A DNA stretch of 32,000 nt from Edaphobacter aggregans (GCF_003945235.1 NZ_RSDW01000001.1:4140001-4172000); one strand, 5' to 3'. Positions 3,113 to 27,402 are shown, numbered from the stretch's first letter. A program made the numbers and translations. Notes: generated by a model not told the origin, from the sequence alone.

Positions 3113-3140
3113 TCCATACACCAATCCGCAGCACATCGCA

Positions 3141-3205: not shown

Positions 3206-4426
3206 AAGCCCAACCCGCCGAACCACCCCCAACCCAGGCACAGTCATGGCCGTAGTCACCACCGCCATCAAAACAAAAACCGTAAACAACAAAGGACTAA
3301 GAATCCCTTCCCTATACCCAATATTCAGCACCACCAATTCCACCAGCCCACGAGTATTCATCAAAACCCCAATCTCCGCCGAGCTCCTCCACGACATCCC
3401 ACTCACCCGAGCCCCCAGCGCCGACCCGCCAACCTTCCCCACCACCGCCACCACCAGCACCACAGCCAGCCAGCCCATCGCACTCTGCGAAAACATCTCC
3501 CGCTGCGCCCGCAGCCCCGTCATCGCAAAGAACAGCGGCAAGCCCACCGCAATCAAAGGCTGCAGCACACGTTCCGAACCCTCCTCCAGAGCCTTCGTCC
3601 ACGGCACGCAAACACCCGCCAGAAACGCCCCAAAGAAAGCATGCACCCCCAGCATCTCCGTTACCCGTGCACTCACAAACGCCACAGCAACGATCCCCAC
3701 AACCCAAACCCAAAGCGGCCCGCGCCCCGCCACACGAGCAGCCATCGGCCTTGCACCAAACAACATCACCCCCACAAACCCCGCCAGCAACGCCAGACGG
3801 CCCATCACCCCCGCCAGCCCACCACCCCGCACAATCTCCAGAATCACCGCCAGTAGCGCCCACGCCGCAACGTCATTGCCCGCCGCACACACCAGCGCAA
3901 TCGAAGCTGTCCCCGGATCAACCGCTCTCCCCGTCCCCCGCCGTTCCTGAATAATCCGTGCCAGCACCGGCAGCGCCGTTATGCTCATCGCGATCCCCAC
4001 AAACAACACAAATCCCACCCGCGACACACCCTCCGCTCGTGGCAACATCCCCGCCAGTCCCACCCCAAGGACGAACGGCACCGCAATACTCCCCACCGTA
4101 ATCGCCAGCGAACCCTTGCCGCCCGCGAGCTCCGTATCCACCTCAGCCCCAATCATCATCAGAAACAGCACCAGCCCCACATAGCTCACCATCTCCAGCC
4201 CTTGCAAACACCCAGGCGGAAACACTCTCGCCGAAGCAGCAGGGAAGTAATGCCCAAAGACCAGCGGCCCCAGCAGCAACCCACCTGCAATCTCACCCAC
4301 CACCCGAGGCTGACCCACTCGCCCCAGCACCCACCCGCAGACCTTTGTGACCGCAAGGATCATCGCAATCTGCACCGCCACCAGCACGATTTCTCCGACA
4401 AACCCACCAGCCGGGCACCCCATCAT
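3200..4426 (-). CDS. Cation:proton antiporter, CPA2 / Na_H_Exchanger family
   Basis: 408-aa ORF with more than 10 hydrophobic helices. The N-terminal GQPRVVGEIAGGLLLGP signature is typical of Kef-like CPA2 exchangers; no C-terminal TrkA-N/KTN domain is seen. Its ATG overlaps the stop of the upstream ORF (ATGA at 4426-4423). Confidence 0.85.
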   Translation of the reverse strand: MMGCPAGGFVGEIVLVAVQIAMILAVTKVCGWVLGRVGQPRVVGEIAGGLLLGPLVFGHYFPAASARVFPPGCLQGLEMVSYVGLVLFLMMIGAEVDTELAGGKGSLAITVGSIAVPFVLGVGLAGMLPRAEGVSRVGFVLFVGIAMSITALPVLARIIQERRGTGRAVDPGTASIALVCAAGNDVAAWALLAVILEIVRGGGLAGVMGRLALLAGFVGVMLFGARPMAARVAGRGPLWVWVVGIVAVAFVSARVTEMLGVHAFFGAFLAGVCVPWTKALEEGSERVLQPLIAVGLPLFFAMTGLRAQREMFSQSAMGWLAVVLVVAVVGKVGGSALGARVSGMSWRSSAEIGVLMNTRGLVELVVLNIGYREGILSPLLFTVFVLMAVVTTAMTVPGLGVVRRVGLR

Positions 4427-4938
4427 CCCGACCGCCCCCGCTGTCGTCGCGCCTCAACCACAATCACCAGCTCCGTCACCAGCAGGATCAGCCCTAACGG
4501 AGCGATACGTGCGGCCACTGCCGCCGGCCACCCCATCTTCAGATCAAAATGCTCATCCAGCACCCAGAGCATGATCCCTGCTACCAGCAGAATCGACCCA
4601 CCCCATCGCCTGAACCTCGCCGATATCTCGCTCTCGCCCTTATACTGCGTGCCCCGAATCTCCCGCACCGGCTGTCCAGCCAACCCATGCTGATCGTAGA
4701 TCCGGCATCGCAACGCAGGATCCTCCGCCACCTTCGCAGCAGCATGAGCTTTCGCCTCCGCCAGCGACCCGAACACCGTGCAAGCCGGCACCCCACCGCC
4801 GCTTTCGTCCTCTCGACCCACCACCCGAGGCTGTGTACCCGAGTACAAAACCGCATACTCCCCCGGGGCCATCCTTTCATTCCAGTTCTGCGGACGAGCC
4901 TCAGGATCAAACAACAGCAGCACACGTGGTTCGGACAT
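4423..4938 (-). CDS. Hypothetical protein: about 110-aa soluble N-terminal domain plus two C-terminal TM helices
   Basis: 171-aa ORF with coding-like composition. The C-terminal hydrophobic stretches are WGGSILLVAGIMLWVL and IAPLGLILLVTELVIVV. It has a 4-nt overlap with the antiporter start. I recognise no family. Confidence 0.6.
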   Translation of the reverse strand: MSEPRVLLLFDPEARPQNWNERMAPGEYAVLYSGTQPRVVGREDESGGGVPACTVFGSLAEAKAHAAAKVAEDPALRCRIYDQHGLAGQPVREIRGTQYKGESEISARFRRWGGSILLVAGIMLWVLDEHFDLKMGWPAAVAARIAPLGLILLVTELVIVVEARRQRGRSG

Positions 4939-5019
4939 CGGGCAAGTATATCAACGCACTAAACTCCACCCATTTACCACGCTTGCCCAGCAATTCTCCA
5001 CCAACAAACCACCAAAAAC

Positions 5020-6276
5020 CTACCTCAAATCCATCACCACAATCCGCCCATCCGAGTGAAAACTCCCCCCCGTAGCCGTCCTAGCCTCAAGCATAGGATT
5101 ATCCGGACTCACATAAGCCGCGCTAGAAAAAACGCCCGCCGCATCAAAGCTCTGCAGCAAATAATCCCGCTCTTTATCGATCTCCGGATCGATCTTATGC
5201 GTCACCTTCCCATTCCGCTGATCCTTCTCAAACCCAATATCATGCGTCGAAGACCCCACCCAAACCGGCCGCCCACCGATCACCTTGTCCGTCTTCCAAA
5301 CCCGCAGATGATGCCGCTCTGCCGCCACCATCAACGGGTCCGCCCGCGCATACGACATATCCTGCGGTCGCCCGAATAAGTACAACGTACTCATAGGCAT
5401 AGCCGTATAAGCCTCCTTATTCAGAGTAGCCATCAACCCACTCACAATCGCATCCTGCACCGACTTATCCACCGTCACCCACCCCGCTGCCTTGAAAGCC
5501 GCCACCACCTGGTCCTGAGTCCCCACCATGGCAAAATTAACCATGTCCCCTTCATTCCCCCCAACAGCCGCCTGATCCGTAACCCGCCGCGGAACATCAG
5601 CAAACGTAGCCGCCGAAACCAGCGAACTCACCGGCGTAACCGGTGCAGTCGAGACAGCACTAGCAGCCTTCACCGCCGGGGCAAACTTCACCTTCACCGT
5701 AAAACTCCCCGAAGCCGTCAGATCGCTACTCACATTCGCCCGCAGATAAAGCGTCCCACTCGTCGGCATCGTCACATTGCCATTAGCTCCAATCGAGAAG
5801 GGAACTGAAGCCCCCATATCGCTCACCCGCCCAATCAGCGCACCCACAGGAGCCTGGTTCAGCGGAAACTGCCGCAACAGATCCTTCCATCCTCTCGCCA
5901 ACCCATCCGGCCCCGTCTCACGCGCATCCGACAACGTAAAGCTCCCCGTCGCCGTAAAGTTCGCCGTCTCGCCCGCGCCCAGCACAACGCCCGTATCCAG
6001 CCACTCCCCGTCCTTCAGCGTGAACTCATAGTTCTGCTTATGCGCCGGAACAGCAGCCGCGCTGATCACCGGCTTGTCCCGCATACTCACTACCGCTTCC
6101 ACCCGCGGACCCACCCGAACCGTACTCACCGGAGCCGTCGGAACAGCCGTCGCCGTCGTCGAACCCGTCTGCTCTCCCGAAACCGCGCCAACGTCCAGTA
6201 TCAACACCAGTACAACACCCCTGATCCCCCAAAGGTGTCGTCGCCTATCCACTGGAAATCGTTTAGAGTGTTTCAT
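5020..6276 (-). CDS. Secreted LssY-like C-terminal domain protein
   Basis: ORF 5020..6444. I prefer the ATG at 6276 (MKHSKRFPVDRRRHLWGIRGVVLVLILDVGAVSG, signal-like). The C-terminal region VNFAMVGTQDQVVAAFKAAGW...STLYLFGRPQDMSYARAD...ERHHLRVWKT...THDIGFEKD resembles the LssY_C family as I remember it. The middle part is a beta-rich domain. Confidence 0.7.
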   Translation of the reverse strand: MKHSKRFPVDRRRHLWGIRGVVLVLILDVGAVSGEQTGSTTATAVPTAPVSTVRVGPRVEAVVSMRDKPVISAAAVPAHKQNYEFTLKDGEWLDTGVVLGAGETANFTATGSFTLSDARETGPDGLARGWKDLLRQFPLNQAPVGALIGRVSDMGASVPFSIGANGNVTMPTSGTLYLRANVSSDLTASGSFTVKVKFAPAVKAASAVSTAPVTPVSSLVSAATFADVPRRVTDQAAVGGNEGDMVNFAMVGTQDQVVAAFKAAGWVTVDKSVQDAIVSGLMATLNKEAYTAMPMSTLYLFGRPQDMSYARADPLMVAAERHHLRVWKTDKVIGGRPVWVGSSTHDIGFEKDQRNGKVTHKIDPEIDKERDYLLQSFDAAGVFSSAAYVSPDNPMLEARTATGGSFHSDGRIVVMDLR

Positions 6277-6319
6277 ATCAATGTCCTTTATTAAGACGCT
6301 GAACCTGGGCCAACGGCTT

Positions 6320-7060
6320 ATGTCATTCACCAATCTCGTCCGCAAAGCCGCTTGTTTCGCAGCCGTCGCCTCCGTTACCGTTGCACTCTCCGGCTGCCAG
6401 GGCATCGTCAACAGTCCAACGATGTCCCAGGTCCGCATCATCAACGCCTCGCCGGACGCGCCCGGCCTCGATATCTATCAAAATTCTGCCATTATCGCCA
6501 GCAACCTCGGCTTCGGCTCCATTACATCCTACGTCCCCATCGATCCCGGGACCTACACGACCACTGCCAACGCCTTCGGAACCAAACAGGCTCTCTCCTC
6601 TTCCAAGACGACCTTCGTCACCGCCAACCAGTACACCGTGCTCATCGGAAACGTAGCCGCCAGCCTGCAGCAACTCACCCTTAAGGACCAAAGCCAGGCC
6701 GCTCCCTCCGGCCAGATCGCTCTCCGCTTCATCGACCAGGCCACCCGCATCGCCGCTGTCGATGTTTATCTCATCCCCTCCGGTTCGAAGCTCACCGACG
6801 TCACGCCTGTCTACACCAATCTCAGCTTCGGTATCAACACGGGCTACCTCAACATCCCCGTCGGCACCTATAGCCTCGCCATGGTGCCCACCGGAACGAT
6901 CCCCACCAGCACCACAGTGCTCACCTACAGTGGACCTCAGGTCACCTACACCTCCGGTTCGGCCAGCACCGTTATCCTGATCGATCAACAACTCCTCACC
7001 ACCCCCGGCCTCCAGGTCATCACCGCCCCGGACTACGTCTCGCCCACCGCTACAAGCTAG
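6320..7060 (+). CDS. Lipoprotein with DUF4397-like repeats
   Basis: ORF 6074..7060. Plausible starts are the ATG at 6320 or 6281. Signal plus lipobox: MSFTNLVRKAACFAAVASVTVALSGC. Repeated RIINASPDAPGLDIY / RFIDQATRIAAVDVY segments resemble DUF4397. It is divergent from the LssY-like gene. Confidence 0.7.
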   Translation: MSFTNLVRKAACFAAVASVTVALSGCQGIVNSPTMSQVRIINASPDAPGLDIYQNSAIIASNLGFGSITSYVPIDPGTYTTTANAFGTKQALSSSKTTFVTANQYTVLIGNVAASLQQLTLKDQSQAAPSGQIALRFIDQATRIAAVDVYLIPSGSKLTDVTPVYTNLSFGINTGYLNIPVGTYSLAMVPTGTIPTSTTVLTYSGPQVTYTSGSASTVILIDQQLLTTPGLQVITAPDYVSPTATS

Positions 7061-7215
7061 CCTCTCCCTACACGCCGCCACATCAAAAGTCGCGCCCAAC
7101 GCGAAAAATATACTTCTCGCAACCTCCGCAACACCCACTCAGTCCCTGTGTCTACTCCCACCGTAGGCAACGGCAGAAACATCCAAGCCGAAAAAAGAGA
7201 TACAGGAGCTTCATC

Positions 7216-7554
7216 ATGAACATCACGAAATTCGCACTTGCAGCCACTTTTCTCCTCTCCCCGGTCGTCATTCTTGCACAGGCACCAGCCACCGCACCGA
7301 CGTCAACCACCATCAACCAGCGCAAAGAGAACCAGCAGGACCGCATCGCTCAGGGCGTAAAGAGCGGCCAGCTTACCCCCGGCGAAACCTCAAAACTCGA
7401 GCATCAGGAAGCCGGTATCAACAAGGAAGAGCGTGGCATGCGAGCCCAGGACAACGGTCATCTCACCAAAGGCGACAAGGCCCTCGTCAACAAGCAACAG
7501 AACCAGGAATCCAAGCGTATCTATCGCGACAAGCACAACGCCAAGAAGGCCTAG
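7216..7554 (+). CDS. Small secreted, highly charged (K/Q/E/N-rich) protein
   Basis: 112-aa ORF with AGGAG at 7204-7208. Signal peptide MNITKFALAATFLLSPVVILAQA. The mature part is low complexity and charged. No family assigned. Confidence 0.65.
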   Translation: MNITKFALAATFLLSPVVILAQAPATAPTSTTINQRKENQQDRIAQGVKSGQLTPGETSKLEHQEAGINKEERGMRAQDNGHLTKGDKALVNKQQNQESKRIYRDKHNAKKA

Positions 7555-7574
7555 GAAAAGTGATCCACCGCTCC

Positions 7575-7620
7575 ATCGAATCAATGGCCGCCAGGAAATT
7601 CTCCTGACGGCCATTTCGAT
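7575..7620 (+). terminator. Nested stem-loop downstream of the 7216 gene (possible terminator, no clear T-tract)
   Basis: ATCGAA tc AATGGCCG c CAGGA aattc TCCTG a CGGCCATT TCGAT. It starts 21 nt after the stop codon. Confidence 0.35.
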
Positions 7621-7639
7621 TACGACTGCTACCGTCATT

Positions 7640-7800
7640 GTCGCCGCAGTTGCTGTTTGTTCTTGTGATTGGCTGTTCTTTGGTTGTCATCCGCAAACAT
7701 CTGATCTGCTTCTGCCATGGCTGTTGTCTTTCTTTTTTGTCATCCTCGAAGGGGATCTGCTGTTGTCGTTGCTATTGCTTTGCCGTTGCTTTCGTTGCCC
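7640..7800. repeat. T/G-rich intergenic repeat block with two tandem TTGTCATCC...GATCTGCT units
   Basis: Unit 1 at 7684-7716: TTGTCATCCGCAAACATCTGATCTGCTTCTGCC. Unit 2 at 7737-7769: TTGTCATCCTCGAAGGGGATCTGCTGTTGTCG. The flanks are TTGC/TTGT-rich. It shares a 15-nt core with 3176-3190. Confidence 0.7.
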
Positions 7801-7856
7801 CTTGTATCTGAGGTAGGTCGGTGCATCCCAGGCTGCGAAAGCACGTTTTGCTTAAG

Positions 7857-7913
7857 GGTACGGCTTCAGCCGTGCCACTAGTGTCTCTTTTGCTTGGCGG
7901 CTTCAGCCGCTGA
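7857..7913. repeat. Two REP-like GC hairpins with a TTCA loop
   Basis: ACGGC-TTCA-GCCGT at 7860-7873 and GCGGC-TTCA-GCCGC at 7897-7910, 37 nt apart, in a non-coding region. Confidence 0.6.
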
Positions 7914-8153
7914 GGTCACCCTCTAACTTGGACATCAACATCGCAGCGCAGCGGCCTGCACTCTGGGCCCGAACGAAGTCGAGGGGCCGGAGGGAAGCCC
8001 GAAGGGGTGTGCAACCACCAATATCGCCATCCCCCTTTGTCCGTTTTCCACAAGAGAACCTGTCAATACCCCAATACACATATCCCATTGCCCACCAATG
8101 AGATACCGCTGCCGAACCATTTCATTCAAACCGCTATAATGGATAGAGACAGC

Positions 8154-8195
8154 AAAGGGAAAGGCCTCGGCAAATCGCCGAGGTCTTTCCCTTTT
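8154..8195 (-). terminator. Strong (bidirectional) intrinsic terminator, likely ending the ahcY transcript
   Basis: GGGAAAGGCCTCGGC (8157-8171), loop AAATC, GCCGAGGTCTTTCCC (8177-8191): 15-bp stem with one mismatch. TTTT follows on the plus strand and TTTGCT on the minus strand. Confidence 0.8.
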
Positions 8196-8226
8196 AGAAT
8201 CAATACAAGAATAAGCACTATGAAAT

Positions 8227-8280
8227 GAATGCTTTACAATCTAAGTCCGGACCTAAAGTATCTAAAATCAATACTTTGCC
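8227..8280 (-). repeat. 3'-UTR stem-loop motif copy A1 (8241-8280) plus degenerate copy A2 (8227-8240)
   Basis: Minus-strand reading: GGCAAA|GTATTGATTTTAGATAC|TTTAGG|TCCGGACTTAG, followed by ATTGTAAAGCATTCATTT. It lies between the ahcY stop (8303) and the terminator (8154-8195). See findings. Confidence 0.6.
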
Positions 8281-8302
8281 CACCTTGCGTGGGATAGGGA
8301 TA

Positions 8303-9739
8303 CTAGTACCGGTACTGCTCCGCCTTGTAGGGGCCATCAACCGAAACGCCAAGATACTCCGCCTGCTTCGGCGAAAGTGTCGTCAGCTTCACGCCGATCT
8401 TCTCTAGGTGCAGACGGGCAACTTCCTCATCCAGCTTCTTCGGCAGGATGTAGACGCCCGGCTTGTATGTGTCCTTGTTCTTCCAGAGGTCGAGCGCAGC
8501 CAGCGTCTGGTTCGAGAAGCTGGACGACATCACGAAGCTCGGGTGACCCGTAGCGCAGCCCAGGTTCACTAACCGCCCCTCGGCCAGCACAAAGATGCTG
8601 TGACCTTCGGGGAAGGTGTACTTATCAACCTGCGGCTTAATATTCAGCTTCGTCACGCCCTTGGCGCTGTTCAGCTGATCCATCTGGATCTCGTTGTCGA
8701 AGTGCCCAATATTGCAGACGATCGCTTGATCCTTCATCTGCTGCATGTGCTCAAAGGTGATGATGTCGAGATTGCCGGTGCAGGTGACATAAATATCGCC
8801 GCGCCCAAGGGTCTCCTCAAGCGTCGTGACCTCATACCCTTCCATCGCCGCCTGCAGCGCGTTGATCGGATCGATCTCGGTGACCAACACGCGAGCGCCA
8901 AGCCCACGCAGCGAAGCTGCCGAGCCCTTGCCCACGTCGCCGTAGCCGCAAACCACGGCAACTTTGCCCGCCACCATCACATCGGTCGCGCGCTTGATGC
9001 CATCGACCAGCGACTCACGGCAGCCATACAGGTTGTCGAACTTGCTCTTGGTAACGGAGTCGTTCACATTGATTGCCGGAACCAGCAGTTTGCCCTGCTC
9101 CATCATCTTGTAGAGGCGGTGAACGCCAGTCGTCGTCTCCTCAGCCACGCCTTTCCACTCCTTGGCGAGCTTCTGGAAGTAAGTCGTATCCTCAGCATGG
9201 ATCTTCTTCAGCAGGTTCTTGATGACGCCCTCTTCCTGATTGCCCGAGGGAGTATTCACCCAACCATCGCCCTTCTCTAACTCCACACCCTTGTGGATGA
9301 GCAGGGTAACGTCGCCACCGTCGTCGATCACGATCTGCGGACCCAGGCCACCCTTGTGCCGCAGAGCCTGATCCGTGCACCACCAGTACTCCTCGAGCGT
9401 CTCGCCCTTCCAGGCGAACACAGGAACGCCGGCCGCAGCAATCGCCGCCGCCGCATGGTCCTGCGTCGAAAAAATATTGCAGCTTGCCCAGCGCACGTCG
9501 GCGCCCAGCGCGACCATCGTCTCGATCAGCACAGCGGTCTGGATGGTCATGTGCAGCGATCCAGTCACGCGAACGCCAGCCAGAGGCTTCGAGGGAGCGT
9601 ACTTGTTGCGGATAGCCATCAACCCCGGCATCTCCTGCTCGGCAATTTCAATCTCCTTGCGTCCAAACTCCGCAAGCGAAATGTCCGCGACCTTGTACTC
9701 CGTCGCCAGTACAGACTTATCGATAGTTGCTGTCGCCAT
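8303..9739 (-). CDS. ahcY: Adenosylhomocysteinase (S-adenosyl-L-homocysteine hydrolase)
   Basis: 478-aa ORF. N-terminal [30 protein letters not shown]-binding [12 protein letters not shown], and C-terminal ...[10 protein letters not shown] are all typical of AhcY. Confidence 0.97.
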
Positions 9740-9901
9740 TACGGCACCTCATTCCTTAATTCAAATGTCGTTGTGATGGACCAATCTGATCTACCTAAAG
9801 GATACCATTCGAGCCCTGTGTTTCAGCCAAAACTGCCCATCCGCGCTGCCTGTATTCATCAAACAACAACGCTTCTTTCATATACAATCTCCACATGTTT
9901 C

Positions 9902-11209
9902 TCATCGTTTCTCGTGAGATGCTCTTTGCTGCCTGACCGATAAACTAAGCACCGCGGCACACAACGCCAGCCCGCTGATTCCATACAGGCCGCCCGCGAA
10001 GCTATGAGTTGCATCACGCAACCTGCCCGTTAAATAAGGCCCTGTAAATCCGCCGAGCCCGCCAAGAGTCGTGATCATGGCAACACCGCCCGCCGCCGCT
10101 GCACCCTTCACCATCCGCGTCATCAGAGCCCAGAAAGGCCCCATCGTGCTCCACAGCCCAATAGCCGCCAGCGACAATGCGCACAACGCCACAGCCACAT
10201 CATGCGCCACAGCTGCCCAGGCGAACCCCACAGCAACCAGCACCATACATCCCGCCAGATGCCCACGTCGCTCATTCCACCTATCCGAACTCCACCCCAC
10301 AATCACCGTGAAGATGGCGGCCAGCACGTACGGCACCGTAGCATAGCGAGCAATCAGACTCGCGTCGCGCCCCATACGCCCATCAGCCAGGCTCGACAGA
10401 ATCAACGGCATCCACAGATTCACCACATACACGCCGATCTGGATAACGACATAAACTCCAGCCAGCATCCATACCGCCGGCATCTTGAAAACATCCATCA
10501 GATTGCCGTGCTCTCCGGCGCCATACAGGGTACGGTCCCGCTCGAGTTCGCCTGCTAGCCAAAGCTTCTCCTGCGAATCAAGCCACTCCGCCTTCTCCGG
10601 CCCGTCCCGCAGCACAAACAGCACAGATACCCCCAGCAGAACCGTCGGAATCCCTTCAGCCAAAAACAGCCACTGCCACCCGCTCAACCCAGCAACACCA
10701 TCTAGCCGCAATAGTGCACTAGAAATCGGCCCACCAATCACCCCCGCAAGAGACGTCGCCGTCATGAACTTGGCCACAGCCCGCGCCCGCTCGTGCGAAG
10801 GAAACCAGAACGTTAGATAAAGCAGCATTCCAGGCACAAAACCCGCTTCGGCTACTCCCAGCAAAAAACGCAGAATATAGAACGATCGCGGCGAGTGGAT
10901 GAACATCATGCACGCCGCAACAATCCCCCACGTGATCATGATGCGCCCAATCCAAAGCCGCGTACCGACCTTCCGCAGCATAAGGTTGCTGGGCATATCG
11001 AATAGCGCATAGCCCAGAAAGAATATTCCCGCACCCGTTCCGTACACCGTATCGCTGAAGTGCAGTTGCCGCTTCATGTCCATCGCGGCAAAGCCAACGT
11101 TCACGCGGTCCACATAGGCCACGATGTAGAGCAAAAAGAGATAGGGAATCAGTCGACGCGTGATCTTCGCGTACAGTACACGTCCATCAATCGCAGTCGC
11201 TTGCACCAT
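9902..11209 (-). CDS. MFS transporter, anion:cation symporter (ACS)-like subfamily
   Basis: 435-aa ORF with about 12 hydrophobic helices. The N-terminus RRLIPYLFLLYIVAYVDRVNVGFAAMDM...GAGIFFLGYALFDMPSNL is typical of ACS-type MFS permeases (tartrate/hexuronate-like). Substrate unknown. Confidence 0.85.
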   Translation of the reverse strand: MVQATAIDGRVLYAKITRRLIPYLFLLYIVAYVDRVNVGFAAMDMKRQLHFSDTVYGTGAGIFFLGYALFDMPSNLMLRKVGTRLWIGRIMITWGIVAACMMFIHSPRSFYILRFLLGVAEAGFVPGMLLYLTFWFPSHERARAVAKFMTATSLAGVIGGPISSALLRLDGVAGLSGWQWLFLAEGIPTVLLGVSVLFVLRDGPEKAEWLDSQEKLWLAGELERDRTLYGAGEHGNLMDVFKMPAVWMLAGVYVVIQIGVYVVNLWMPLILSSLADGRMGRDASLIARYATVPYVLAAIFTVIVGWSSDRWNERRGHLAGCMVLVAVGFAWAAVAHDVAVALCALSLAAIGLWSTMGPFWALMTRMVKGAAAAGGVAMITTLGGLGGFTGPYLTGRLRDATHSFAGGLYGISGLALCAAVLSLSVRQQRASHEKR

Positions 11210-11242
11210 CGCTCTACTGTATCCGGTCGAGCGCAGATCAAG

Positions 11243-12331
11243 TCAATTCTTCTCAGCAGCGAGCAATCTCAGCTTCCTCTCAACGCCCCAGCGATAGCCA
11301 GTCAGCGACCCGCTCTTCCCAACCACCCGATGGCAAGGCACAATTACCGCCACCGGATTCGCCGCACACGCTCCTGCGATGGCCCGCGTGGCCGTCGGCG
11401 ATCCAAGCTGAACTGCAAGCGCCGAATAACTCCGAGTCTCTCCGCGGGGAATCTCCTGCAATGCCCTCCACACTCGCTGTTGAAATGCCGTTGCACGCAC
11501 ATCGAGAGGAAAATTCGCAGCAAGTGGATGTTCGCCCATCTGGCTTGTCACAAAAGTCACAGCCTCAGCCAACCATCCCGTAGAGCTTTTCTCTGCCACC
11601 AATTCGGCCTTAGGAAAACGACCCCGAAGAATCTCAAATACCTCGGCATTATTGTCGCCAAACGCGATCGTGCACACACCTACATCGGTCGTCGCCACTA
11701 GCATCCGGCCCAACGGACTATCAGCAATATAGTATCGGATCTCAAGTCCTGCCGCTCCACTGCGCATCTCACGCGGAGTCATCCCTAACCGCGCCCCGCT
11801 GTTCTCATACAGCCTACTGCTCGATCCAAAATCCGCATCGTAGATTGCATCCGTCACTCGCATCTTCGGCTCCCTCACCTTGTCCTTGAACTTCTCCAGC
11901 CGCTGTGCCTTCGCGTACTGTCCCGGGCTCACCCCAAGCACACGCTTGAATCCGCGCAGAATTGTAAGCCGCCCAACTCCGGTAGCCTTCGCAACATCAG
12001 CCAACTTCATCCGTTCGTCCGCATGCTCCCGCAGATACTTCGTCACTGTCCCGATAGCGGCGGCCTGCGGATCCGCCTTGGGCGTCGTCCGCTCCGGCTC
12101 GCATCGCTTGCATGGTCTGAAGCCAGCCGCCTGCGCCGCGTCCGTCGTCGGAAAGAACTGCACCTGCTTGCGGTTAGGTCTGCGACTGGGACAACTCGGC
12201 TTACAGAAGATGCGAGTCGACTTCACAGCATAAAAAAACTGACCGTCAGCGCTTGCATCACGTTCCAGCACCTGCTGCCATTGCTTGCCAGGAAAGAGAC
12301 TCGGAATGTTGTTAGCTTTAGTCATCGTCAT
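11243..12331 (-). CDS. ada: Bifunctional Ada: methylphosphotriester-DNA/AraC-type regulator fused to O6-methylguanine-DNA methyltransferase
   Basis: N-terminal Zn site CKPSCPSRRP...CKRC. AraC HTH LADVAKATGVGRLTILRGFKRVLGVSPGQY. C-terminal MGMT active site IVPCHRVVG. Confidence 0.9.
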   Translation of the reverse strand: MTMTKANNIPSLFPGKQWQQVLERDASADGQFFYAVKSTRIFCKPSCPSRRPNRKQVQFFPTTDAAQAAGFRPCKRCEPERTTPKADPQAAAIGTVTKYLREHADERMKLADVAKATGVGRLTILRGFKRVLGVSPGQYAKAQRLEKFKDKVREPKMRVTDAIYDADFGSSSRLYENSGARLGMTPREMRSGAAGLEIRYYIADSPLGRMLVATTDVGVCTIAFGDNNAEVFEILRGRFPKAELVAEKSSTGWLAEAVTFVTSQMGEHPLAANFPLDVRATAFQQRVWRALQEIPRGETRSYSALAVQLGSPTATRAIAGACAANPVAVIVPCHRVVGKSGSLTGYRWGVERKLRLLAAEKN

Positions 12332-12404
12332 TCCAGTATCTTCCTACCACTCGTTCCTCGTCACACTCCGTTTCGTTCAATCAAACTCTGAATGGAACTT
12401 CCAG

Positions 12405-13322
12405 CTAGAGTCCGAACGGAGGAACCCACTTCTTGTCGCGCGTCCCCCCACCCACAAGTGGCACTGTAACTCCTTGCTCATCCACCTCGTAGCTCTCGAC
12501 ATAGAAGTTCTTTACCTCCGCTACACCAAAGCTGGTTGTGATGGCCACATCCGTAGCATCGCGCCCAGTCGCCATCAGCACGCGCCCGATGCGCGGCTCG
12601 TTATGACGAGCATCCATCGTCCACCATCGACCACTTAGAAAGACCTCGTACCATGCGCTGAAATCACCCGGACCGCTATAAGGTGTGCGGATATCCCCGA
12701 GGTAACCTGTCACGTACCGCGCAGGAATATTCATAGCCCGCGTCATCGCAATCGCCAGGTGTTGGTAGTCGCGGCACACGCCGACGCGTTCCGTAAACAC
12801 ATTCAGAGAAGTCTTCGTCGGGCGCGCCGTGTTGTAGTTAAAGCGCACATGGTTGTGCACCCAGTCGCGGATCCACACAGCCCGCGCCCATCCCGGTGTC
12901 GTGTGTCCGAACATATCGCCCGCCACTTGCGACATCTGGTCCACCTCGCAGTAGCGGCTGCTAAGCAAAAACTGCAGCGTCTCCGTTGGCAGTTCTTCGA
13001 CAGGATGTTGAATGGCCTCAGTAAAAATCGGATCGGGCTGGCCATCGTCTTCCACGAGACTTTTGCCACTTATCCGCAATGTTCCTTGCGGTGCCACAAA
13101 CCGAGAGCAACGGTTCCCGAAGCTGTCCAAATACTCCTCCGCTGCGATCGAAGTCTTCGACTCCAACTCCAACCCCTGAGGAGCGGTTTCAATGTGTTCG
13201 AGCGTCAATTCTTCCGGTTCGCGCACGAGCGGGTCGACCGAAGGATGAAGTCGTAGCATCGCGACCATCGTCAACTCTTGCGGAAGATGAAACTGAATAT
13301 CGAACTCGGAACGTATCAGCAT
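12405..13322 (-). CDS. Transglutaminase-like family protein (Bact_transglu_N plus transglutaminase core)
   Basis: 305-aa ORF with the core GVCRDYQHLAIAMTRAMNIPARYVTGYL (Cys nucleophile context) and ...WWTMDARHNEPRIGRV. The expected His position reads DFSAW (see findings). Confidence 0.8.
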   Translation of the reverse strand: MLIRSEFDIQFHLPQELTMVAMLRLHPSVDPLVREPEELTLEHIETAPQGLELESKTSIAAEEYLDSFGNRCSRFVAPQGTLRISGKSLVEDDGQPDPIFTEAIQHPVEELPTETLQFLLSSRYCEVDQMSQVAGDMFGHTTPGWARAVWIRDWVHNHVRFNYNTARPTKTSLNVFTERVGVCRDYQHLAIAMTRAMNIPARYVTGYLGDIRTPYSGPGDFSAWYEVFLSGRWWTMDARHNEPRIGRVLMATGRDATDVAITTSFGVAEVKNFYVESYEVDEQGVTVPLVGGGTRDKKWVPPFGL

Positions 13323-13414
13323 AAGTATCCCCGGCCAATCGTGGAAGGCCCTTGTAACTGCGATGCGAAAAGTTCCTGAGCGGCAAGTCTAACCTGCTTT
13401 TTCGCCTTAAATGC

Positions 13415-13450
13415 GATGCGGGGTGAAACTCATAGAGTCCACCCCGCATC
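13415..13450 (-). terminator. Hairpin downstream of metK (probable terminator, weak U-tract)
   Basis: 11-bp perfect stem GATGCGGGGTG / CACCCCGCATC with a 14-nt loop. It starts 19 nt after the metK stop. On the minus strand it is followed by GCATTTAAGG. Confidence 0.5.
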
Positions 13451-13468
13451 CTACAATGCTTTTTCGGT

Positions 13469-14671
13469 TTACTTTGCTGCGGTCTTGACACCAGCCTGCT
13501 CTGCTAGAGCAGCTGCCTTGTCAGTCTCTTCCCACTTGAAGCCTTCGCCCTTGCGGCCGAAGTGCCCGTAAGCAGCAGTAGCCTTGAAGATCGGTCTGCG
13601 CAGGTCGAGACCCTCAATGATGCCCTTCGGCGTCAGCGAGAAGTTTTTCCGCACCAGCGTCTCAAGCGTCGTCTCATCGACCTTGCCCGTGCCAAACGTA
13701 TCGACCAGCACACTAACCGGCTCAGCCACGCCGATCGCATAGGCAAGCTGCACCTCGCAGCGATCCGCCAGCCCAGCCGCGACGATGTTCTTCGCCACAT
13801 AGCGCGCCATATAAGCTGCAGAACGGTCGACCTTCGTCGCATCCTTGCCACTGAAGGCTCCGCCGCCGTGACGGCCCATGCCGCCGTAGGTGTCGACGAT
13901 AATCTTGCGTCCCGTCAAACCCGTATCGCCCATTGGCCCACCGACGACAAACCGTCCGGTCGGGTTGATGTGATACTTCGTATCCTCATCGAGCAGGTTC
14001 GCAGGAATCACAGCCTGGATCACATTCTTCAGAATGTCAGCGCGCAACTCGTCATTGCCCACGGTCTCAGCATGCTGCGTCGAAATCACAACCGCATCCA
14101 CACGCACAGGCTTGTGGTTCGCGTCGTACTCCACCGTCACCTGGCTCTTGCCATCAGGCCGCAGATACGACATCAACCCATTCTTACGAACCTCAGAGAG
14201 CTTATGTGCCAGCTTATGAGCCAGCGAGATCGGTGTCGGCATCAGTTCCGGCGTCTCATTGGTCGCGTAGCCAAACATCATGCCCTGGTCGCCTGCGCCG
14301 CCCGTATCGACACCCATGGCGATATCGCCTGACTGCTTATTGATCGTCGAGATCACCGCACACGTGTTCGAGTCGAACCCATACAGCGCATTGTCATACC
14401 CGATCGCCGCGACCGTTCCGCGCACAAGGTTCTGGAAGTCCACATAAGCCTTCGTCGTGATCTCGCCCGCAATCACCACCAGCCCGGTGCAGGTCAGCGT
14501 CTCGCACGCTACACGGCTGTAGGGATCCTGCGCTAGGCAGGCATCCAGAATCGCATCAGAAATCTGGTCGGCAATCTTATCCGGATGCCCCTCGGTTACA
14601 GACTCACTGGTAAACAGAAAACGGTCGCGTGTCGACAAATCAAACTCCTCCAAAGTCTTTGCGGGCAACAT
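13469..14671 (-). CDS. metK: S-adenosylmethionine synthetase
   Basis: 400-aa ORF with [37 protein letters not shown] and [19 protein letters not shown], the canonical MetK motifs. Confidence 0.97.
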
Positions 14672-14789
14672 ATCCCGCGCAGTAGGTAACCTCTCTATTC
14701 TACCCGTCTGTCACCCGCCCCCGCAAAACCACCCATGCATTTGCGACCAGTGCGCAGTCAATGGCGATATCCTGCATCAAACAGCATCT

Positions 14790-14828
14790 CCAACAAAACA
14801 AAGCGACGCCCATTCTCAGGACGCCGCT
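14790..14828 (-). terminator. Intrinsic terminator of the TonB-dependent receptor gene
   Basis: Minus-strand AGCGGCGTCC TGAGAAT GGGCGTCGCT (10-bp stem including 2 G-U pairs) followed by TTGTTTTGTTGG. It starts 20 nt after the stop at 14848. Confidence 0.7.
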
Positions 14829-14847
14829 CCACCTAAACTCCTATTTT

Positions 14848-17800
14848 TTAGAAAATTACTTTCGCGCCAAGCTGAAGAATGCGCTTGTCGCGGTAACCCG
14901 TAATGTTACCGGCAGTTGAGCTGAAACCGCTGGCACTAATCAGGCTACCCGTTGAAATTGTGTCCGGGTTTGTATGGTTGAACAGGTTGAAGGCCTCGCC
15001 GCGAAGCTGCATGTGCACATGCTCTCCAAAGTTGACATTCTTGAACAGGCCCGTATCCACGCGCCACCAGCCGGGTCCCTGCACAACATTGCGCTCGGCA
15101 TTGCCGCCACGGATCTGCCCGCTAGGAACTGCCGAAAACCCATTGATGTTGAACCAGTTCAGCCGATTGTGGATTGGAGTGGCCCCAGCATGGTTCGGAT
15201 TGGCAATCTGATCCGGCCGTCCGCTGGAGACGCTCGAGCCAAACACAACACCAACGCCAGCCGGATCCAGCCCCGTGGTCGTAACGTTCAGCGGCAGGCC
15301 CGTGTTGAAGTAGCCCAAGCCTGAGACCTCCCATCCACCGAGCAGGTGGCCAACCAGGCCATGCTGTTCATAGAAGAACGGTAACGCGTACACGGCGTTG
15401 AGGTTGAACATATGCCGACGGTCGGCAGCTGCAGGGCCATACTCCGCCGACGGAAGCGACGAAATCTGCGGAGCGCCAGTACGATCGGCGTTGGCGTTCG
15501 TCAGCGCATGTGACCACGTGTAATTTGCAGCCACCAGAGAGTTATGCTTCCACTCCTTGCGGGCAGACGCTTGCAGGGAATTGTAGTTGCCCATGAAAAT
15601 CGTCTGCACCGAGTTGATTGCGCTAAAGCCCTTATACGGCCGGTAGGGATTGATCAGCGACACGTTTGAGCTGGTCACTGTCGTCGTCGGGTTGGCTGCG
15701 GCAAACGCTCCAACGGGGGCCTGGTTGATATCCACAAGGCCCAGCAGATGGTTCTGCACGCTGCCAACATAGGCAACCTCACCTACGAAGCCCCCCTTGA
15801 TCTGCTGTTGAAAGCTCAAAGAGAACTGCTGGTTGTACGGCGTCCTGAAGCGTGGCGCTGTGGCACGAATCACCTGCGCCGCATAGCTCACATTTGCCGC
15901 AACGATCCCAGGATTGTCGAAGCTCGTATTTGAGACCGTTGGTGAGTTTACGAACGGAGGGTTCTGAAAGATATTTTGTTCATAGGTGCCGAACAACGCT
16001 GAGTCAAATGCGATGCCGTATCCTCCACGCAACGACGTCTTGCCGTTGCCGAAGACATCAAGGGCAAAGCCGAGGCGGGGAGCAAAATTGAGATTATCGG
16101 ACGATCCAATCTTATTTCCGTATGGAGAATTCTTCCCGTTGATACTCACGCCATTCGTCACTGCCGACGCCAAGGTCACGCCGGTCACAGGACTTACGCC
16201 AGTGCAAGGCGCGCCCGTCACGCAGATCAACCCATTCTTGTCCACCGTCGGCGCTGCAGCAGAGCTATACAGCGATGGATCAAAGGTCGTCAGCTGATTA
16301 TTTTGATCTGTCGGTTGTGCGAAGCGCGTGTAGCGAACGCCCATATTCAACGTTAGCCTCGGTGTCACCTTCCAGTCATCCTGTGCATACACCTCAAATT
16401 GATTGGCCAGAATATTGGCAGTCACATCGATCGAGGCTTGCGAGAACGTTGTTGCAAAGCCAGTCAGGAAGTTAGCCCACGCCTGCTGATAGGCCTGCGC
16501 CGTCGACCCGGTTGGAAGATTGCCATTCGTAAAGCCGAAGCTGCCCGCATTGGCGCTCGCATTGTTCTCACGCTTGTTGTAACGGTTGTAATCGATGCCC
16601 GCCTTGAGCGTATGGTTGGCAATCGTCTTGGTGACATTCCCGAAGATATTGTGGTTGCGGTTGAAGTCGCGATATGGGCCGTATGTAGCAAGAGTAGTGC
16701 CACTGGAGAATGTCAGGGTCGGCACTCGCGGCAACGTGGATGGGAAAAGCAGCGTTGGCTTGATGTCAGGCGAGTTCGCGTTCGCCATCAATCCCACCGG
16801 GTCGCTAAGCAGCGCGCCATACGAGAACGCATACCCGCCATCGATCAGCAGCGTCGGATTGATGACGTACGTCGCATGCCCAAGATACGTCCGTCCGGGT
16901 GCATTCGTATTAGTAGTGTTGACACCCGGAAAACCACTCCCCTGGAACAGTCCACCTGGCTCCTGCGTCGGAATTGAATCGTTGACCATTCGGAAGAAGA
17001 GGTTCATCTTCTGCCCAAGCTGTTGGTCGATACGAACGATCTGCTGGTTTCCGTTGAAGAGATTGCGCTGCGGTGGCGTCACCAGGGTGCCGGTCGCGTC
17101 CGGCGTTCCGACGCTCGCGTAAATGTCCTTCAGATACGCCTGCGCCAAGGTGCTTGTAATTGGCACAGTCGTTACACCGGTATTGTTGCATTTTCCGGTC
17201 GTTGCATTCGTGCTCGCGCACACGGCCTTGGTAAAGATGCCCTGTCGCTCAGCCACGCTCGGGACCCCCGTCAGCGTTAAAGGCTTGTACGTGATCACCC
17301 GCCGGATCTCTTGCGAGAAGAAGAAATAGGTATTGTGCTTCCGGCCGTCGTAGATGCGGGGTAGCCACACCGGCCCGCCGATCGTGTAGCCGAAGTCGTT
17401 GTAACGCAGCGCGCCGCGTGAAGCGGTTGTCTTCGCCGCGCCCGACGGCGTGGTCGTCAGTTTGTTCAGTACATCGTTGGCATTAAACACATCATTACGA
17501 ACAAACTCGTAGGCGCTTCCGTGGAAGTTGTTGGTTCCTGACTTCGTAATGACGTTGATCTGTCCGCTGGCAGCGCGTCCGTACTCTGCCGAATAAGCCC
17601 CGCGCTGCGTCTTGAACTCAGCAATTGCGTCCACCGAGGGATATGTCAGCAACGTGTAGTTCGATCCGCGATCCTGGTTGTCGACGCCGTCCACGGTCCA
17701 TCCATTGCCGCTTGTGCGGCTGCCGTTGACGGAGAAATTCACAACATTTGTCGCACCGTTCGGGCTCGAATTGCCAATGTAGATCTGATCGGCGCCCGTG

Positions 17801-18768: not shown

Positions 18769-18817
18769 AACAATTCCTACCTCTCACTCGGAAAGGAAAT
18801 TTCTTATAAATATTATT

Positions 18818-18930
18818 TAAATCAATACTTTACAGGGCAAGCCTCATCAAAGCTTTTGAACCGAGGGACCTTGGTCTACCCATGATAAAACGAGTCCACC
18901 CGTAAACCTATTTTTATAAATACTTTACGA
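18818..18930 (-). repeat. 3'-UTR stem-loop motif copy B1 (18891-18930) and partial copy B2 (around 18801-18836)
   Basis: Minus-strand reading. B1: CGTAAA|GTATTTATAAAAATAGG|TTTACG|GGTGGACTCG. B2: CCTGTAAAGTATTGATTTAAATAATATTTATAAG. Both lie between the HTH-gene stop (18985) and the terminator (18724-18768). Confidence 0.6.
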
Positions 18931-18984
18931 GAAAATATCTAGGGGGAAGACCACCACGCCAAACATATCTGATCTGATTCCGCT

Positions 18985-25634: not shown

Positions 25635-26465
25635 GTGCCGGTGCGTCCGTCGGTCATCATTCTTACGTTCAACTCGAGCGACTCTCTTCCTGCAACTCTC
25701 GCCAGCATCCAGGGCCTTACCGACGATGTTCACGTTGTCGACTCCGGCAGTACGGATAGGACTGTTGAAATCGCTACGGCCGCGGGGGCTTCGGTCGAAC
25801 ATCACGCTTTCGAGAACTATGGGGCACAGCGTAACTGGGCTATCGACAACCTTTCGACTCGCTATAAGTGGCAACTGCATCTGGATGCCGATGAGCGCCT
25901 GACTCCGGAGTTGCGGGCGGAGATTCTCGCGCTGCCGGAGGAGTCATCGTACTCGGGTTACTTTCTGCCGCGGATGCTTCAGTTTATGGGCAGGGTGCTG
26001 CGGAATGGCGGCATGTCCCCTACCTGGCACATGCGGCTGTTTGTGACAGGCCAGGGCCGGTGTGAGGCTCGCGAGTACGATCAGCACTTTCAGTGCGTGG
26101 GCGAGACCCAGCGGCTGACGCACGCGATGATCGACGACATCCGCATGTCGCTCACCGAATGGACCTATCGGCATAACCGGTGGTCCGACGCTGAGGTCCG
26201 CGAGATGTCGCTACAGAACACAGAAGGGCGAATCCAAGGACGGATTGGCGGCAATCCGATCGAGCGGAAGCGGTTCCTGCGGCGCTTCTACTCGGGTGCT
26301 CCTGCGTTCAGCCGACCGTTCGCGCTTTTTTTCTACAGGTACGTCGTTCGCCTCGGCTTCCTTGACGGGATGGAGGGGTTCATCTTCTATGTGCTGCAGA
26401 CGTTCTGGTTCCGGTTTCTGGTGGATGCCAAGTTGTACGAGCTTCGGAAGAAGACGCTGGCTTAG
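25635..26465 (+). CDS. Family 2 glycosyltransferase, WaaE/LgtF-like (LPS-core type)
   Basis: 276-aa ORF. Start is the GTG at 25635 or, more likely, 25641 (GGAG 5 nt upstream). SVIILTFNSSDSLPATLASI...VVDSGSTDRT...HLDADE (DxD-like) and the C-terminal GFLDGMEGFIFYVLQTFWFRFLVDAKLYE are typical of this GT2 subgroup. Confidence 0.85.
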   Translation: MPVRPSVIILTFNSSDSLPATLASIQGLTDDVHVVDSGSTDRTVEIATAAGASVEHHAFENYGAQRNWAIDNLSTRYKWQLHLDADERLTPELRAEILALPEESSYSGYFLPRMLQFMGRVLRNGGMSPTWHMRLFVTGQGRCEAREYDQHFQCVGETQRLTHAMIDDIRMSLTEWTYRHNRWSDAEVREMSLQNTEGRIQGRIGGNPIERKRFLRRFYSGAPAFSRPFALFFYRYVVRLGFLDGMEGFIFYVLQTFWFRFLVDAKLYELRKKTLA

Positions 26466-26495
26466 CTGAACCAACCCCTCTCCCATACTTCAAGT

Positions 26496-26532
26496 CTTAA
26501 AGTATTCAAAATTTGGGGCTTAGGTCTGGACC
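26496..26532 (+). repeat. 3'-UTR stem-loop motif copy C1
   Basis: CTTAAA|GTATTCAAAATTTGGGG|CTTAGG|TCTGGACC, 31 nt after the GT2 stop. Confidence 0.65.
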
Positions 26533-26627
26533 TATCTTAAGTGCAAGTCGTCAGTTGCGGATTGTCAGTTTCAAACCTTCGGCTTCGTTCAGTTGATCGT
26601 TTCTGGGGATGCCCTCCTCTATTAAGT

Positions 26628-26664
26628 CCTAAGGTATTCAAATAATTTGACTTAGGTCTGGACC
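26628..26664 (+). repeat. 3'-UTR stem-loop motif copy C2
   Basis: CCTAAG|GTATTCAAATAATTTGA|CTTAGG|TCTGGACC. It is a direct repeat of C1, 132 nt downstream and upstream of the terminator at 26700. Confidence 0.65.
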
Positions 26665-26699
26665 GCAGTCTGGCTGTCGGTTTTCACTTAAAATAGGAA

Positions 26700-26730
26700 G
26701 AGCCCCGGCTGCGCCGAGGCTCTCATTTTG
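26700..26730 (+). terminator. Intrinsic terminator downstream of the glycan cluster
   Basis: GAGCCCCGG ctgcg CCGAGGCTC (9-bp stem, one mismatch) followed by TCATTTTGTCTCTGTTCTTATT. An A-run precedes it, so it could also act on the minus strand. Confidence 0.6.
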
Positions 26731-27402
26731 TCTCTGTTCTTATTATAGCGGGTTGAGAGAAATTAAATGGCGCGGTCATGTGGTTTGTTTCCAGCAAGTT
26801 AGATAGGTTTTTGGCTTGACAGCCTCGAGACGGCTAAAGGGACCTGATGTCAGATAGATCGGGCCTTTTGCCCTGAGGAATAGGAGCCCGAGCCTAAAGG
26901 CCTTTTGTATTTCGCGGGTTCTTCGCAGGGCCAAAGCCCTGCGCTTCCACCGAAGAACTAGTGCTGTGCTTCCAGGAAGAATAGAGAAAGGGACTTTCCA
27001 CAAAACCTGTAAAGCAGCCAAAGCTCGATATTTCGGAGGATTCGTCGTTGACGAGGTTTCCGGACTCGGCTATTCTTAAATCTCGCGCAGTCTCGCGTCT
27101 GCACGTCTGTGAAGCTATATCTCATGGACGCGCCAGCCACCGGGACATCGTGGTGGATCCACTCGGGGCAGCAGCGATTCAAGCCACCCCCAAAGCACCC
27201 ACTTCTCAGGTCCCAGTCAAGGTTTGACAAGGTTCTGTGCGCAATCATGCGGGTCGAACTCCTTGTGTGTTCGAGTAGTTTTCGCTCGCGTGTCCGACAG
27301 GTTTGATAAGCAAAAGCAGTCATGCACTAAAAATCAGCTTCACCATTCTTCATGCACCACGCCGAACACTGAAGACGGCAGAATCAAGGAGTAACCCAGA
27401 CG

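Follow-up and report, generated by a model that had tools for sequence, protein, structure and literature searches.

Four copies of a short intergenic motif, designated A1, B1, C1, and C2, are located in a 32,000-nucleotide (nt) stretch of the genome of Edaphobacter aggregans (NZ_RSDW01000001.1:4140001-4172000), hereafter called the window. They belong to a family of interspersed, non-coding DNA repeats in intergenic regions, of which the motif is the conserved core. The family is specific to a clade of Acidobacteriaceae that includes Granulicella, Edaphobacter, Tunturiibacter, Bryocella, and their relatives. The orientation of the repeats tracks the compositional asymmetry of the DNA strands and not transcription. 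On balance, we lean towards the explanation that the repeats form a new family, similar to repetitive extragenic palindromes (REPs) and miniature inverted-repeat transposable elements (MITEs), whose copies enter the genome or persist in it according to the polarity of replication. The non-coding DNA of Acidobacteriaceae, which rank among the commonest bacteria of soils, has hardly been charted.

A previous sequence-only reading of the window described the motif as a stem-loop with 6-nt arms and a 17-nt loop, occurring in four copies, two of them in tandem. All four copies are present, at 26499-26531 (C1) and 26631-26663 (C2) on the plus strand and at 8245-8277 (A1) and 18894-18926 (B1) on the minus strand. 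A pattern degenerate enough to include all of them has 4 matches in the window, compared to 0.18 expected from dinucleotide-preserving shuffles. The tandem arrangement of C1 and C2 is also real, since they form a 41-nt direct repeat that is 80% identical and offset by 132 nt, start to start. The limits of the element had been drawn too narrowly, and a conserved C-rich tract 14-24 nt upstream, present in all four window copies, and a TT(C)GG tail had been overlooked. The copies are the following:

26475-26536, plus strand: copy C1, with a C-rich tract at 26475-26484 and the core AAAGTATT-N12-CTTAGGTCTGGAC at 26499-26531 (nhmmer E-value 3.8e-9)
26612-26668, plus strand: copy C2, with a C-rich tract at 26612-26619 and the core AAGGTATT-N12-CTTAGGTCTGGAC at 26631-26663 (nhmmer E-value 2.7e-8)
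8240-8302, minus strand: copy A1, with a C-rich tract at 8299-8291 and the core AAAGTATT-N12-TTTAGGTCCGGAC at 8277-8245 (nhmmer E-value 9.3e-10)
18888-18950, minus strand: divergent copy B1, with a C-tract at 18946-18942 and AAAGTATT-N12-TTTACGGGTGGAC at 18926-18894 (nhmmer E-value 0.19)

Pfam assignments agree with the upstream genes named earlier, which encode S-adenosylhomocysteine hydrolase (ahcY), an HTH_25 protein, and a family-2 glycosyltransferase (GT2). A1 starts 3 nt past the stop codon of ahcY (8305-8303), and C1 starts 9 nt past that of the GT2 gene (26463-26465). B1, which has three mismatches, is located 58 nt past the stop codon of the HTH_25 gene.

The family was collected by scanning one genome per species with the pattern GTCCRGACCTAAR-N(10-14)-AATACYTT, which matched at least 120 genome chunks. 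The sets of 119 and 123 copies analyzed here are the strict copies among the matches listed, and the numbers of copies per genome are lower bounds. The matches listed are almost all from Acidobacteriaceae, including Granulicella, Edaphobacter, Tunturiibacter, Bryocella, strain TAA166, and many metagenome-assembled genomes (MAGs), and five genomes have at least 8-10 strict copies each among them. Two megaplasmids of the cultured Granulicella tundricola MP5ACTX9 carry the element, unannotated, 1-12 nt past annotated stop codons. Almost all copies are extragenic, with 117 of the 119 located outside predicted genes. The unit is approximately 65 nt long and is composed of CCCCCTCCCC, N4, AAAGTgtgC, AAAGTATTC, N11, YTTAGGTCYGGAC, and TTCGG. 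In the alignment of the copies, the C-rich tract (consensus CCCCCTCCCC) occupies positions -24 to -14, AAAGT positions -9 to -5, and a C position -1; these are followed by AAAGTATTC, with A at +10, +11, +14, and +16, and by YTTAGGTCYGGAC and TT(C)GG. The 3' block is near-palindromic, AGGTC(Y)GGAC(C/T)T. Two sequence subfamilies differ in the bases preceding AAAG, which are ...GTGC in one and ...TCCT in the other, the minority. The fixed loop length noticed in the window holds throughout the family: the 17 nt correspond to a 12-nt gap between AARGTATT and YTTAGG, and in a search that allowed 10-14 nt, 119 of the 123 Acidobacteriaceae-type copies had precisely this length.

Profile searches of the same loci added about 15 slightly altered full-length copies (AAAGTCTTC, TTAGGTTCGGAC, and others) and about 25 partial units, mostly in direct tandem behind a full copy. 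The units occur singly, in direct tandem with degenerate units, or, often, at the head of mosaics of 250-700 nt. Composites of the first type, to which A1 and C2 belong, contain the unit and a GC hairpin with T-runs, followed by CTGTTTCTATTATAGCGG, approximately 60 nt, and GGGGCTTGACAGG. In those of the second type, the unit is joined by AAAAAGTCTTATAAAATGGGG and GCAAAGTATTCATAAATTTAGGYTTATG, and six paralogous copies of one variant, each about 240 nt long, are all found in genome CAVUSG01. The composites recur within and between genomes. The possibility of a small open reading frame (ORF) in the composite tail was rejected upon inspection, because the reading frames are not conserved. No feature is annotated in RefSeq at the sites of the element, and our literature search turned up no earlier description of it and no transcription-start data for these genera. 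Full copies with flanks typical of Acidobacteriaceae are also present in contigs assigned to unrelated taxa (loci L007 and L086, labelled as a Rhodanobacteraceae MAG, and L116, labelled as a Solirubrobacterales MAG), which are probably MAG binning errors.

Of 111 copies, 99 have the forward strand of the motif on the G-rich strand (binomial p = 3e-18), and 98 still do after the removal of ±600 nt around each copy. The same orientation was found in 13 of 15 independent non-strict copies and in both plasmid copies. In the window, A1 and B1 obey this rule, and C1 and C2 are located where the skew is approximately zero. The skew is equally positive on both flanks of a copy, with T exceeding A on the G-rich strand. 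Therefore, the element is aligned with the strand and is not a boundary marker. The sign of the GC skew on the plus strand is the same for genes of either orientation, both in loci L121 and L123, for which independent gene calls are available, and in the window. The skew reaches ±0.5-0.7 at third codon positions and 0.2-0.35 locus-wide (whole loci L121, L123, and L125-L130, and window positions 1-15000); in the window it is strong over positions 1-15000 and fades to about zero past 25000. Its sign is mostly constant over hundreds of kb, with few flips per contig. Strong asymmetry is limited to close Acidobacteriaceae relatives, and the skew is about zero in ahcY loci with less than 80% identity. 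Such gene-independent GC and T strand asymmetry is a classical signature of replication. Unambiguous long ORFs in the motif loci are slightly more common on the C-rich strand (116 versus 91).

The comparison of ahcY loci provides a view of the presence and absence of the element. A metagenome scan with AhcY from the window yielded 80 syntenic loci, and none of the 41 that were inspected (75-96% identity) contained the element after ahcY. Locus L001 was ruled out as an ahcY orthologue by tblastn. The closest relative, L125, has an AhcY with 96% amino-acid and 87% nucleotide identity and the same convergent neighbor gene (...RIYRDKHNGKKA-stop; ...RIYRDKHN.KKA-stop). The spacer between ahcY and this neighbor is about 75 nt long and contains one bidirectional terminator in L125, whereas it is about 750 nt long in the window, where the homologous terminator adjoins the neighbor gene and a mosaic of about 680 nt begins 0-3 nt past the ahcY stop codon. 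The block is missing at the syntenic site of L125, L126, L127, L130, and L193. Neither the ends of the ahcY block nor those of the composites carry terminal inverted repeats, and no target-site duplication is obvious at the single filled and empty pair, the window and L125, whose right junction is blurred by divergence. Approximately 535 kb of loci gathered regardless of the motif contain only one degenerate copy, so the distribution is patchy even among close relatives. The density is uneven, with four copies in the 32-kb window and none in 40 kb of Tunturiibacter. The nearest sequence neighbor of a copy is in the same genome in 18 of 119 cases, compared to 4.2 ± 2.3 expected. The earlier suggestion of a miniature element inserting just upstream of terminators is broadly borne out: the element was inserted at ahcY before the ancestral terminator, is absent from close relatives, and has variants amplified within genomes, but its sites are not limited to the proximity of terminators.

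The spacers of the window that contain the motif include the following additional features:

26698-26724, no strand assigned: GC-rich hairpin with T-runs on both strands (bidirectional terminator-like)
26730-26821, plus strand: composite tail after C2, consisting of CTCTGTTCTTATTATAGCGGG, about 60 nt, and GGCTTGACA
8191-8236, minus strand: two degenerate tandem units behind A1, AAAGCATTCATTTCA... and GTATTGATTCTAAAAG
8154-8194, no strand assigned: 18-bp hairpin, terminator-like on both strands, AAAGGGAAAGGCCTCGGC / GCCGAGGTCTTTCCCTTT
8061-8141, minus strand: composite tail after A1, consisting of CCATTATAGCGG, about 60 nt, and GGTATTGACAGG
7625-8302, minus strand: the whole mosaic block of about 680 nt, from the ahcY stop codon to the ancestral terminator
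18800-18834, minus strand: partial unit downstream of B1, AAAGTATTGATTTAAATAATATTTATAAG

A terminator-like hairpin is located downstream of every window copy as a separate feature, 24-60 nt away. The hairpin sequence at 26698-26724 is also found behind copies in L004 and L020, and the C2-type composite tail is kept downstream of the terminator in copies from several genomes. The ahcY mosaic block also contains GGCTGAAGCC hairpins, CAGATCCCCTTCGAGGATGACAA units, and GCAACN runs. A 24-nt inverted repeat with 79% complementarity and 119 nt between its arms (26531-26554 and 26674-26697) brackets C2; a separate palindromic element may have received this unit as an insertion or may have carried it. 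Further modules in the same spacers are CAGATCCCCTTCG(A/G)GGATGACAA units followed by runs of the GCAACN hexamer (7640-7830, minus strand). These modules are also present in L004, L020, L032, and L110, and their order relative to the motif composite is kept in several genomes. Small GGCTGAAGCC, GGCTAAAGCC, and GGCCAAAGCC hairpins recur in the window (7861-7872, 7898-7909, and 26880-26960) and in L004 and L036; they look like another family of short repeats.

The stem-loop described from the four window copies, and with it the interpretation of the motif as a transcribed RNA element of the 3' untranslated region (UTR), is largely refuted by the whole family. Of the 119 copies, 4 can form all six pairs of the 6-nt arms, and 29 can form five or more; at the third pair, which adjoins the AAA/TTT core, 93 copies (78%) have C mismatched with A. 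The compensatory change reported between B1 and C2 reflects the two subfamilies and not covariation, as no pair of columns has mutual information of the pairing type; among the free columns of the 119 copies, the mutual information corresponds to subfamily structure without pairing. B1 and C2 seem compensatory because both belong to the minority ...TCCT subfamily, the outer bases of which happen to match TTAGG. A stem that looked compensatory in four local copies but vanished in 119 is a caution for motif discovery. Minimum free energy (MFE) folds of the 119 copies on both strands have as their commonest pairing AAAGTAT with ATACTTT, in 20-25% of the copies on either strand; nothing else recurs in these folds, there is no shared fold, and the C-tract does not pair consistently with downstream G-rich runs. 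This 7-bp inverted repeat is intact in 33 of 119 copies (28%), and at least 6 bp of it are retained in 60. The window copies fold with energies of -9 to -11 kcal/mol (z-scores of -1.3 to -2.2) in four different registers, and the fold of the family consensus is no better than those of shuffled sequences (z-score +1.1). The earlier remark that the motif does not belong to a named family is supported by the Rfam search of the whole window, which produced no hits at the gathering score and, at E ≤ 5, two unrelated weak hits, none of them at the copies. Tests including Acido-1 and Acido-Lenti-1 gave no covariance-model match. The motif was also rejected as an intrinsic terminator, since its center is AT-rich and lacks a T-run and the terminator-like hairpins are separate downstream features.

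The gene context was scored as the best same-strand ORF end or opposite-strand ORF start within 90 nt of the C-tract side, based on our own codon model and accepting clear score margins only; twelve contexts were checked against Pfam or RefSeq. Among the 119 copies, 21 follow a same-strand stop codon, 44 precede the start of a gene on the opposite strand, and 54 are ambiguous. Placement between stop codon and terminator, in sense orientation to the upstream gene, had been proposed as a rule. It holds for all four window copies but not family-wide. The intergenic regions are convergent in 24 cases, divergent in 20, and co-directional in 50, which are the proportions expected by chance. On its C-tract side, the element has a gene boundary at a median distance of 30-60 nt, frequently a stop codon 0-12 nt away; on the opposite side, the spacer continues for 200-600 nt. 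Ten opposite-strand genes were identified by Pfam as encoding MutS, UbiD, GH43, SdhB, acyl-CoA dehydrogenase, agmatine deiminase, SerA, a GDSL lipase, GH28, and Sua5/TsaC, which have unrelated functions. A regulon was rejected because the adjoining genes are functionally unrelated.

A scan with the sigma-70 consensus flagged none of A1, B1, C1, and C2 on either strand; one nearby match (18840-18812, minus strand) coincides in part with the partial unit that follows B1 and with no full copy. The best reverse-strand sigma-70 alignment found by eye, CAGACC-N18-TACTTT, matches three of six positions in each hexamer. Upon inspection, the core does not fit sigma-54, sigma-28, or extracytoplasmic-function-type promoters. 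A reverse-strand TTGACA box is located 57-97 nt past the motif in 49 copies (e.g., in L033, L037, and L048); it is more frequent in the opposite-strand-start context (39% versus 24%). A promoter of the element based on these boxes was rejected, because they have no consistent -10 element: TAnnnT follows at a distance of either 7 or about 20-24 nt. Since the direction of the boxes correlates with the local gene context, they probably represent promoters resident at these sites and do not belong to the unit. The boxes occur in two classes. In one, a perfect TTGACA is followed by a C-rich spacer and, 14-16 nt on, by an A-rich patch (AACA), with no -10 element resembling TATAAT. In the other, only 7 nt separate TTGACA from TAAAAT or TAAACT. 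The promoter architecture of these genomes may be unusual.

Candidate transposases were searched for with the acidobacterial 'TIRYT' family of Y1 enzymes, which includes a sequence from Granulicella mallensis (PMC3733652). In another acidobacterium, REP-like repeats in about 600 copies were found next to atypical Y1 genes (PMC6006769). A REP-like repeat, GGGTGCCCCATCCTTTCGCAGTCTCATCGCGATAGGGTGGGGTATTCGCGCCGGCAGGCGCGAACCG, is located in direct orientation on both sides of Y1 genes in L121 (9870-9990 and 10505-10575) and L123 (9865-9925 and 10505-10625), and fragments of it (GGATGGGGCACCC) lie near motif composites in L003, L032, and L088. An association of the element with the TIRYT genes was rejected, since this repeat differs from the element; the 'GTATTCG' heptamer and the C-rich stretch common to both are insufficient for a claim of kinship. 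Among the 85 copies whose C-tract is clear, about 30 have (G)GTA in the left flank, ahead of this tract.

The interpretation of the element as an inserted repeat is based on its multiple non-coding, intergenic copies, on their polymorphism, on their amplification in bursts, and on their assembly into mosaics. We propose that the insertion or survival of its copies may be coupled to replication polarity. Such polarity could arise if HUH/Y1 enzymes transpose single-stranded DNA at the lagging-strand template, as in IS200/IS605 and REP-RAYT systems; this is its best-documented cause (PMC3333891). The transcription of the element would then be passive, as a sense 3' UTR or an antisense 5' UTR depending on the landing site, and the conserved blocks might be read by a protein as sequence and not as an RNA hairpin. 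Several observations weigh against the inserted-repeat interpretation. No transposase is linked to the element among the Y1 genes sampled: the Y1 (PF01797) genes in L121, L122, and L123 (Tunturiibacter and an Acidobacteriaceae MAG) are flanked by a different repeat of about 65 nt, and neither the 120 motif loci nor the window contain a Y1 gene of the TIRYT subfamily, the only one searched. No terminal inverted repeats or target duplication were seen at the one insertion that could be compared with an empty site. Insertions at orthologous sites are common to different species (L036/L039, L011/L033/L037, and L054/L096), so many copies are old and may be kept by selection. Conservation is uneven, with positions 8, 10, 11, 14, and 34 conserved next to free neighbors, which hints at functional constraint rather than neutral decay; the conservation of the 21 positions fixed by the strict search pattern cannot be judged from this sample. 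The asymmetric placement by the gene boundary is not explained by simple selfish insertion. Finally, the identification of the G-rich strand as the leading strand is an assumption taken from the general rule.

A rival explanation is a host-functional DNA site with replication polarity. Here, a protein would recognize the two-part core (AAAGTATTC, 11 nt, TTAGGTCYGGAC) together with the C-tract, in DNA that is either double- or single-stranded. The polarity would serve replication, segregation, or topology, as in KOPS, Chi, Ter, and the BIMEs that bind gyrase or IHF, and the copies would be kept by selection. The strand polarity of about 90%, the exact 12-nt spacing in 119 of 123 copies, the conservation of particular positions that the search pattern left free, the persistence of copies at orthologous sites in different species, the near-palindromic 3' block typical of a dimer binding site, and the asymmetric placement beside genes are consistent with such a site. 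We nevertheless regard it as unlikely, because the element is missing from the approximately 535 kb of motif-unselected loci, including closest relatives with an equally strong skew, its density is very uneven, and the presence and absence at ahcY and the genome-specific bursts of variants resemble mobile DNA. Furthermore, the KOPS-like G-run (GGGGAGGG) is on the C-rich strand, which is a polarity opposite to that of KOPS. A broader formulation, in which the unit of about 65 nt is a protein-read, replication-polarized intergenic signal in a clade with very strong strand asymmetry (third-codon-position GC skew 0.5-0.7), serving as a polar site of a factor associated with replication, segregation, or topology, or as a C-rich entry site for Rho, appears distinctly unlikely. 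The rationale for Rho entry is that leading-strand transcripts are otherwise extremely G-rich. The opposite strand of the element might alternatively be a portable 5' leader or expression cassette, in which GTCCAGACC...GAATACTTT would act as a promoter or leader and GGGGAGGGGG as the Shine-Dalgarno sequence of the adjoining gene. Indeed, 44 of the 65 clear cases have an adjacent opposite-strand gene that starts 30-90 nt past the C-tract, a G-run precedes the ATG by 5-10 nt in about nine (L046, L073, L105, L091, L110, L072, and others), and the reverse-strand TTGACA box is enriched in this context. However, in 21 clear cases, among them all copies of the window and the two on plasmids, the element faces a convergent gene at its 3' end, where there is nothing to express. 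The neighboring genes share no function, the core has no sigma-70 hexamers, the G-run is too far from the start codon in most opposite-strand cases, and ahcY and its neighbor gene manage without the element in relatives. A Shine-Dalgarno leader on the reverse strand explains a subset of the copies but not the third that face gene 3' ends, and as a general account the cassette is quite improbable. We give least credence to a structured 3'-UTR RNA that lies between stop codon and terminator in sense to the upstream gene and acts on mRNA stability, termination, or protein binding, which we consider very improbable. Its position and sense fit all four window copies and both plasmid copies, a weak hairpin is possible in each window copy, and 43 of 119 copies have a forward terminator-like hairpin within 260 nt downstream; a C-rich tract after the stop codon, distinct in G-rich leading-strand transcripts, could load Rho. 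In the family, however, only 21 of 65 clear contexts fit, contexts being mostly starts of opposite-strand genes. There is no conserved fold on either strand, no covariation, and no Rfam family, and strand skew predicts the orientation (about 90%) far better than does the adjacent gene (about 32% sense).

The element marks recent intergenic insertions, and its orientation, which tracks strand polarity, might be of use for tracing the direction of replication or inversions in MAG contigs. Its C-tract and G-run can supply or mask ribosome-binding sequences beside genes. Interest in the element would be high if the polarity serves the host or reveals a new mobilization system. If it is a signal, it would represent a new class of 'architecture-imparting' sequences, modular and located between genes, in contrast to an 8-mer scattered through genes.

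The element resembles known systems in part. KOPS (GGGNAGGG), Chi, and Ter sites also have an orientation correlated with replication polarity, and the element has GGGGAGGG on one strand. However, these sites are 8-23 bp long and either mostly intragenic (KOPS and Chi) or few in number (Ter), whereas the element is approximately 65 nt long, exclusively intergenic, patchy between relatives, and has its G-run on the C-rich strand. Similar to MITEs such as the Correia elements of Neisseria and ERIC/IRU, it is non-autonomous, about 100-300 nt long, intergenic near gene ends, and co-transcribed with its neighbors. It also shares with them promoter- and ribosome-binding-like ends, represented here by TTGACA on the right margin of the composite and by GGGGAGGGGG on its left. 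Unlike MITEs, it has no terminal inverted repeats or TA duplication that we could find, and Correia elements and ERIC are, to our knowledge, not known for such strand polarity. With the REP, BIME, and REPIN sequences associated with RAYT in E. coli, Pseudomonas, and Stenotrophomonas, the element shares being short, multi-copy, extragenic, and often positioned after stop codons and before terminators, as well as forming mosaics with other short motifs, being transcribed in either sense, and being polymorphic between relatives. The master copy of the element contains the inverted repeat AAAGTAT/ATACTTT, but this is kept in only 28% of the copies. The element differs from REPs and REPINs in having no GT[AG]G at the foot of a hairpin but the invariant sequence AAAGTATT with GTAT, units in direct tandem (C1/C2, the A1 units, L040, L115, and the CAVUSG01 composites) and not in inverted pairs, a bipartite core with fixed 12-nt spacing and a C10 tract, strong replication-strand polarity, and sampled Y1 genes that are flanked by another repeat. 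The element thus fails the REP tests (the GT[AG]G foot, inverted pairs, and the flanks of the RAYT genes sampled) and the terminal-repeat test of MITEs, and it is not filed in those families. For IS200/IS605 and their miniature derivatives ('peel and paste'), a transposase gene, left and right subterminal hairpins, and a conserved target tetranucleotide are characteristic, none of which was identified for the element. The likenesses are an orientation locked to the direction of replication, with the active strand on the lagging-strand template in IS200/IS605 and the G-rich strand assumed to be the leading one here, and the lack of terminal inverted repeats. Target duplications are absent from IS200/IS605, and none was obvious at the one insertion compared here; the hairpin-containing ends of IS200/IS605 are recognized as single-stranded DNA. 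An element as strand-polarized as IS200/IS605 that nevertheless fails the REP and MITE tests could point to an unrecognized single-strand or replication-coupled mobilization, or to a host function tied to replication.

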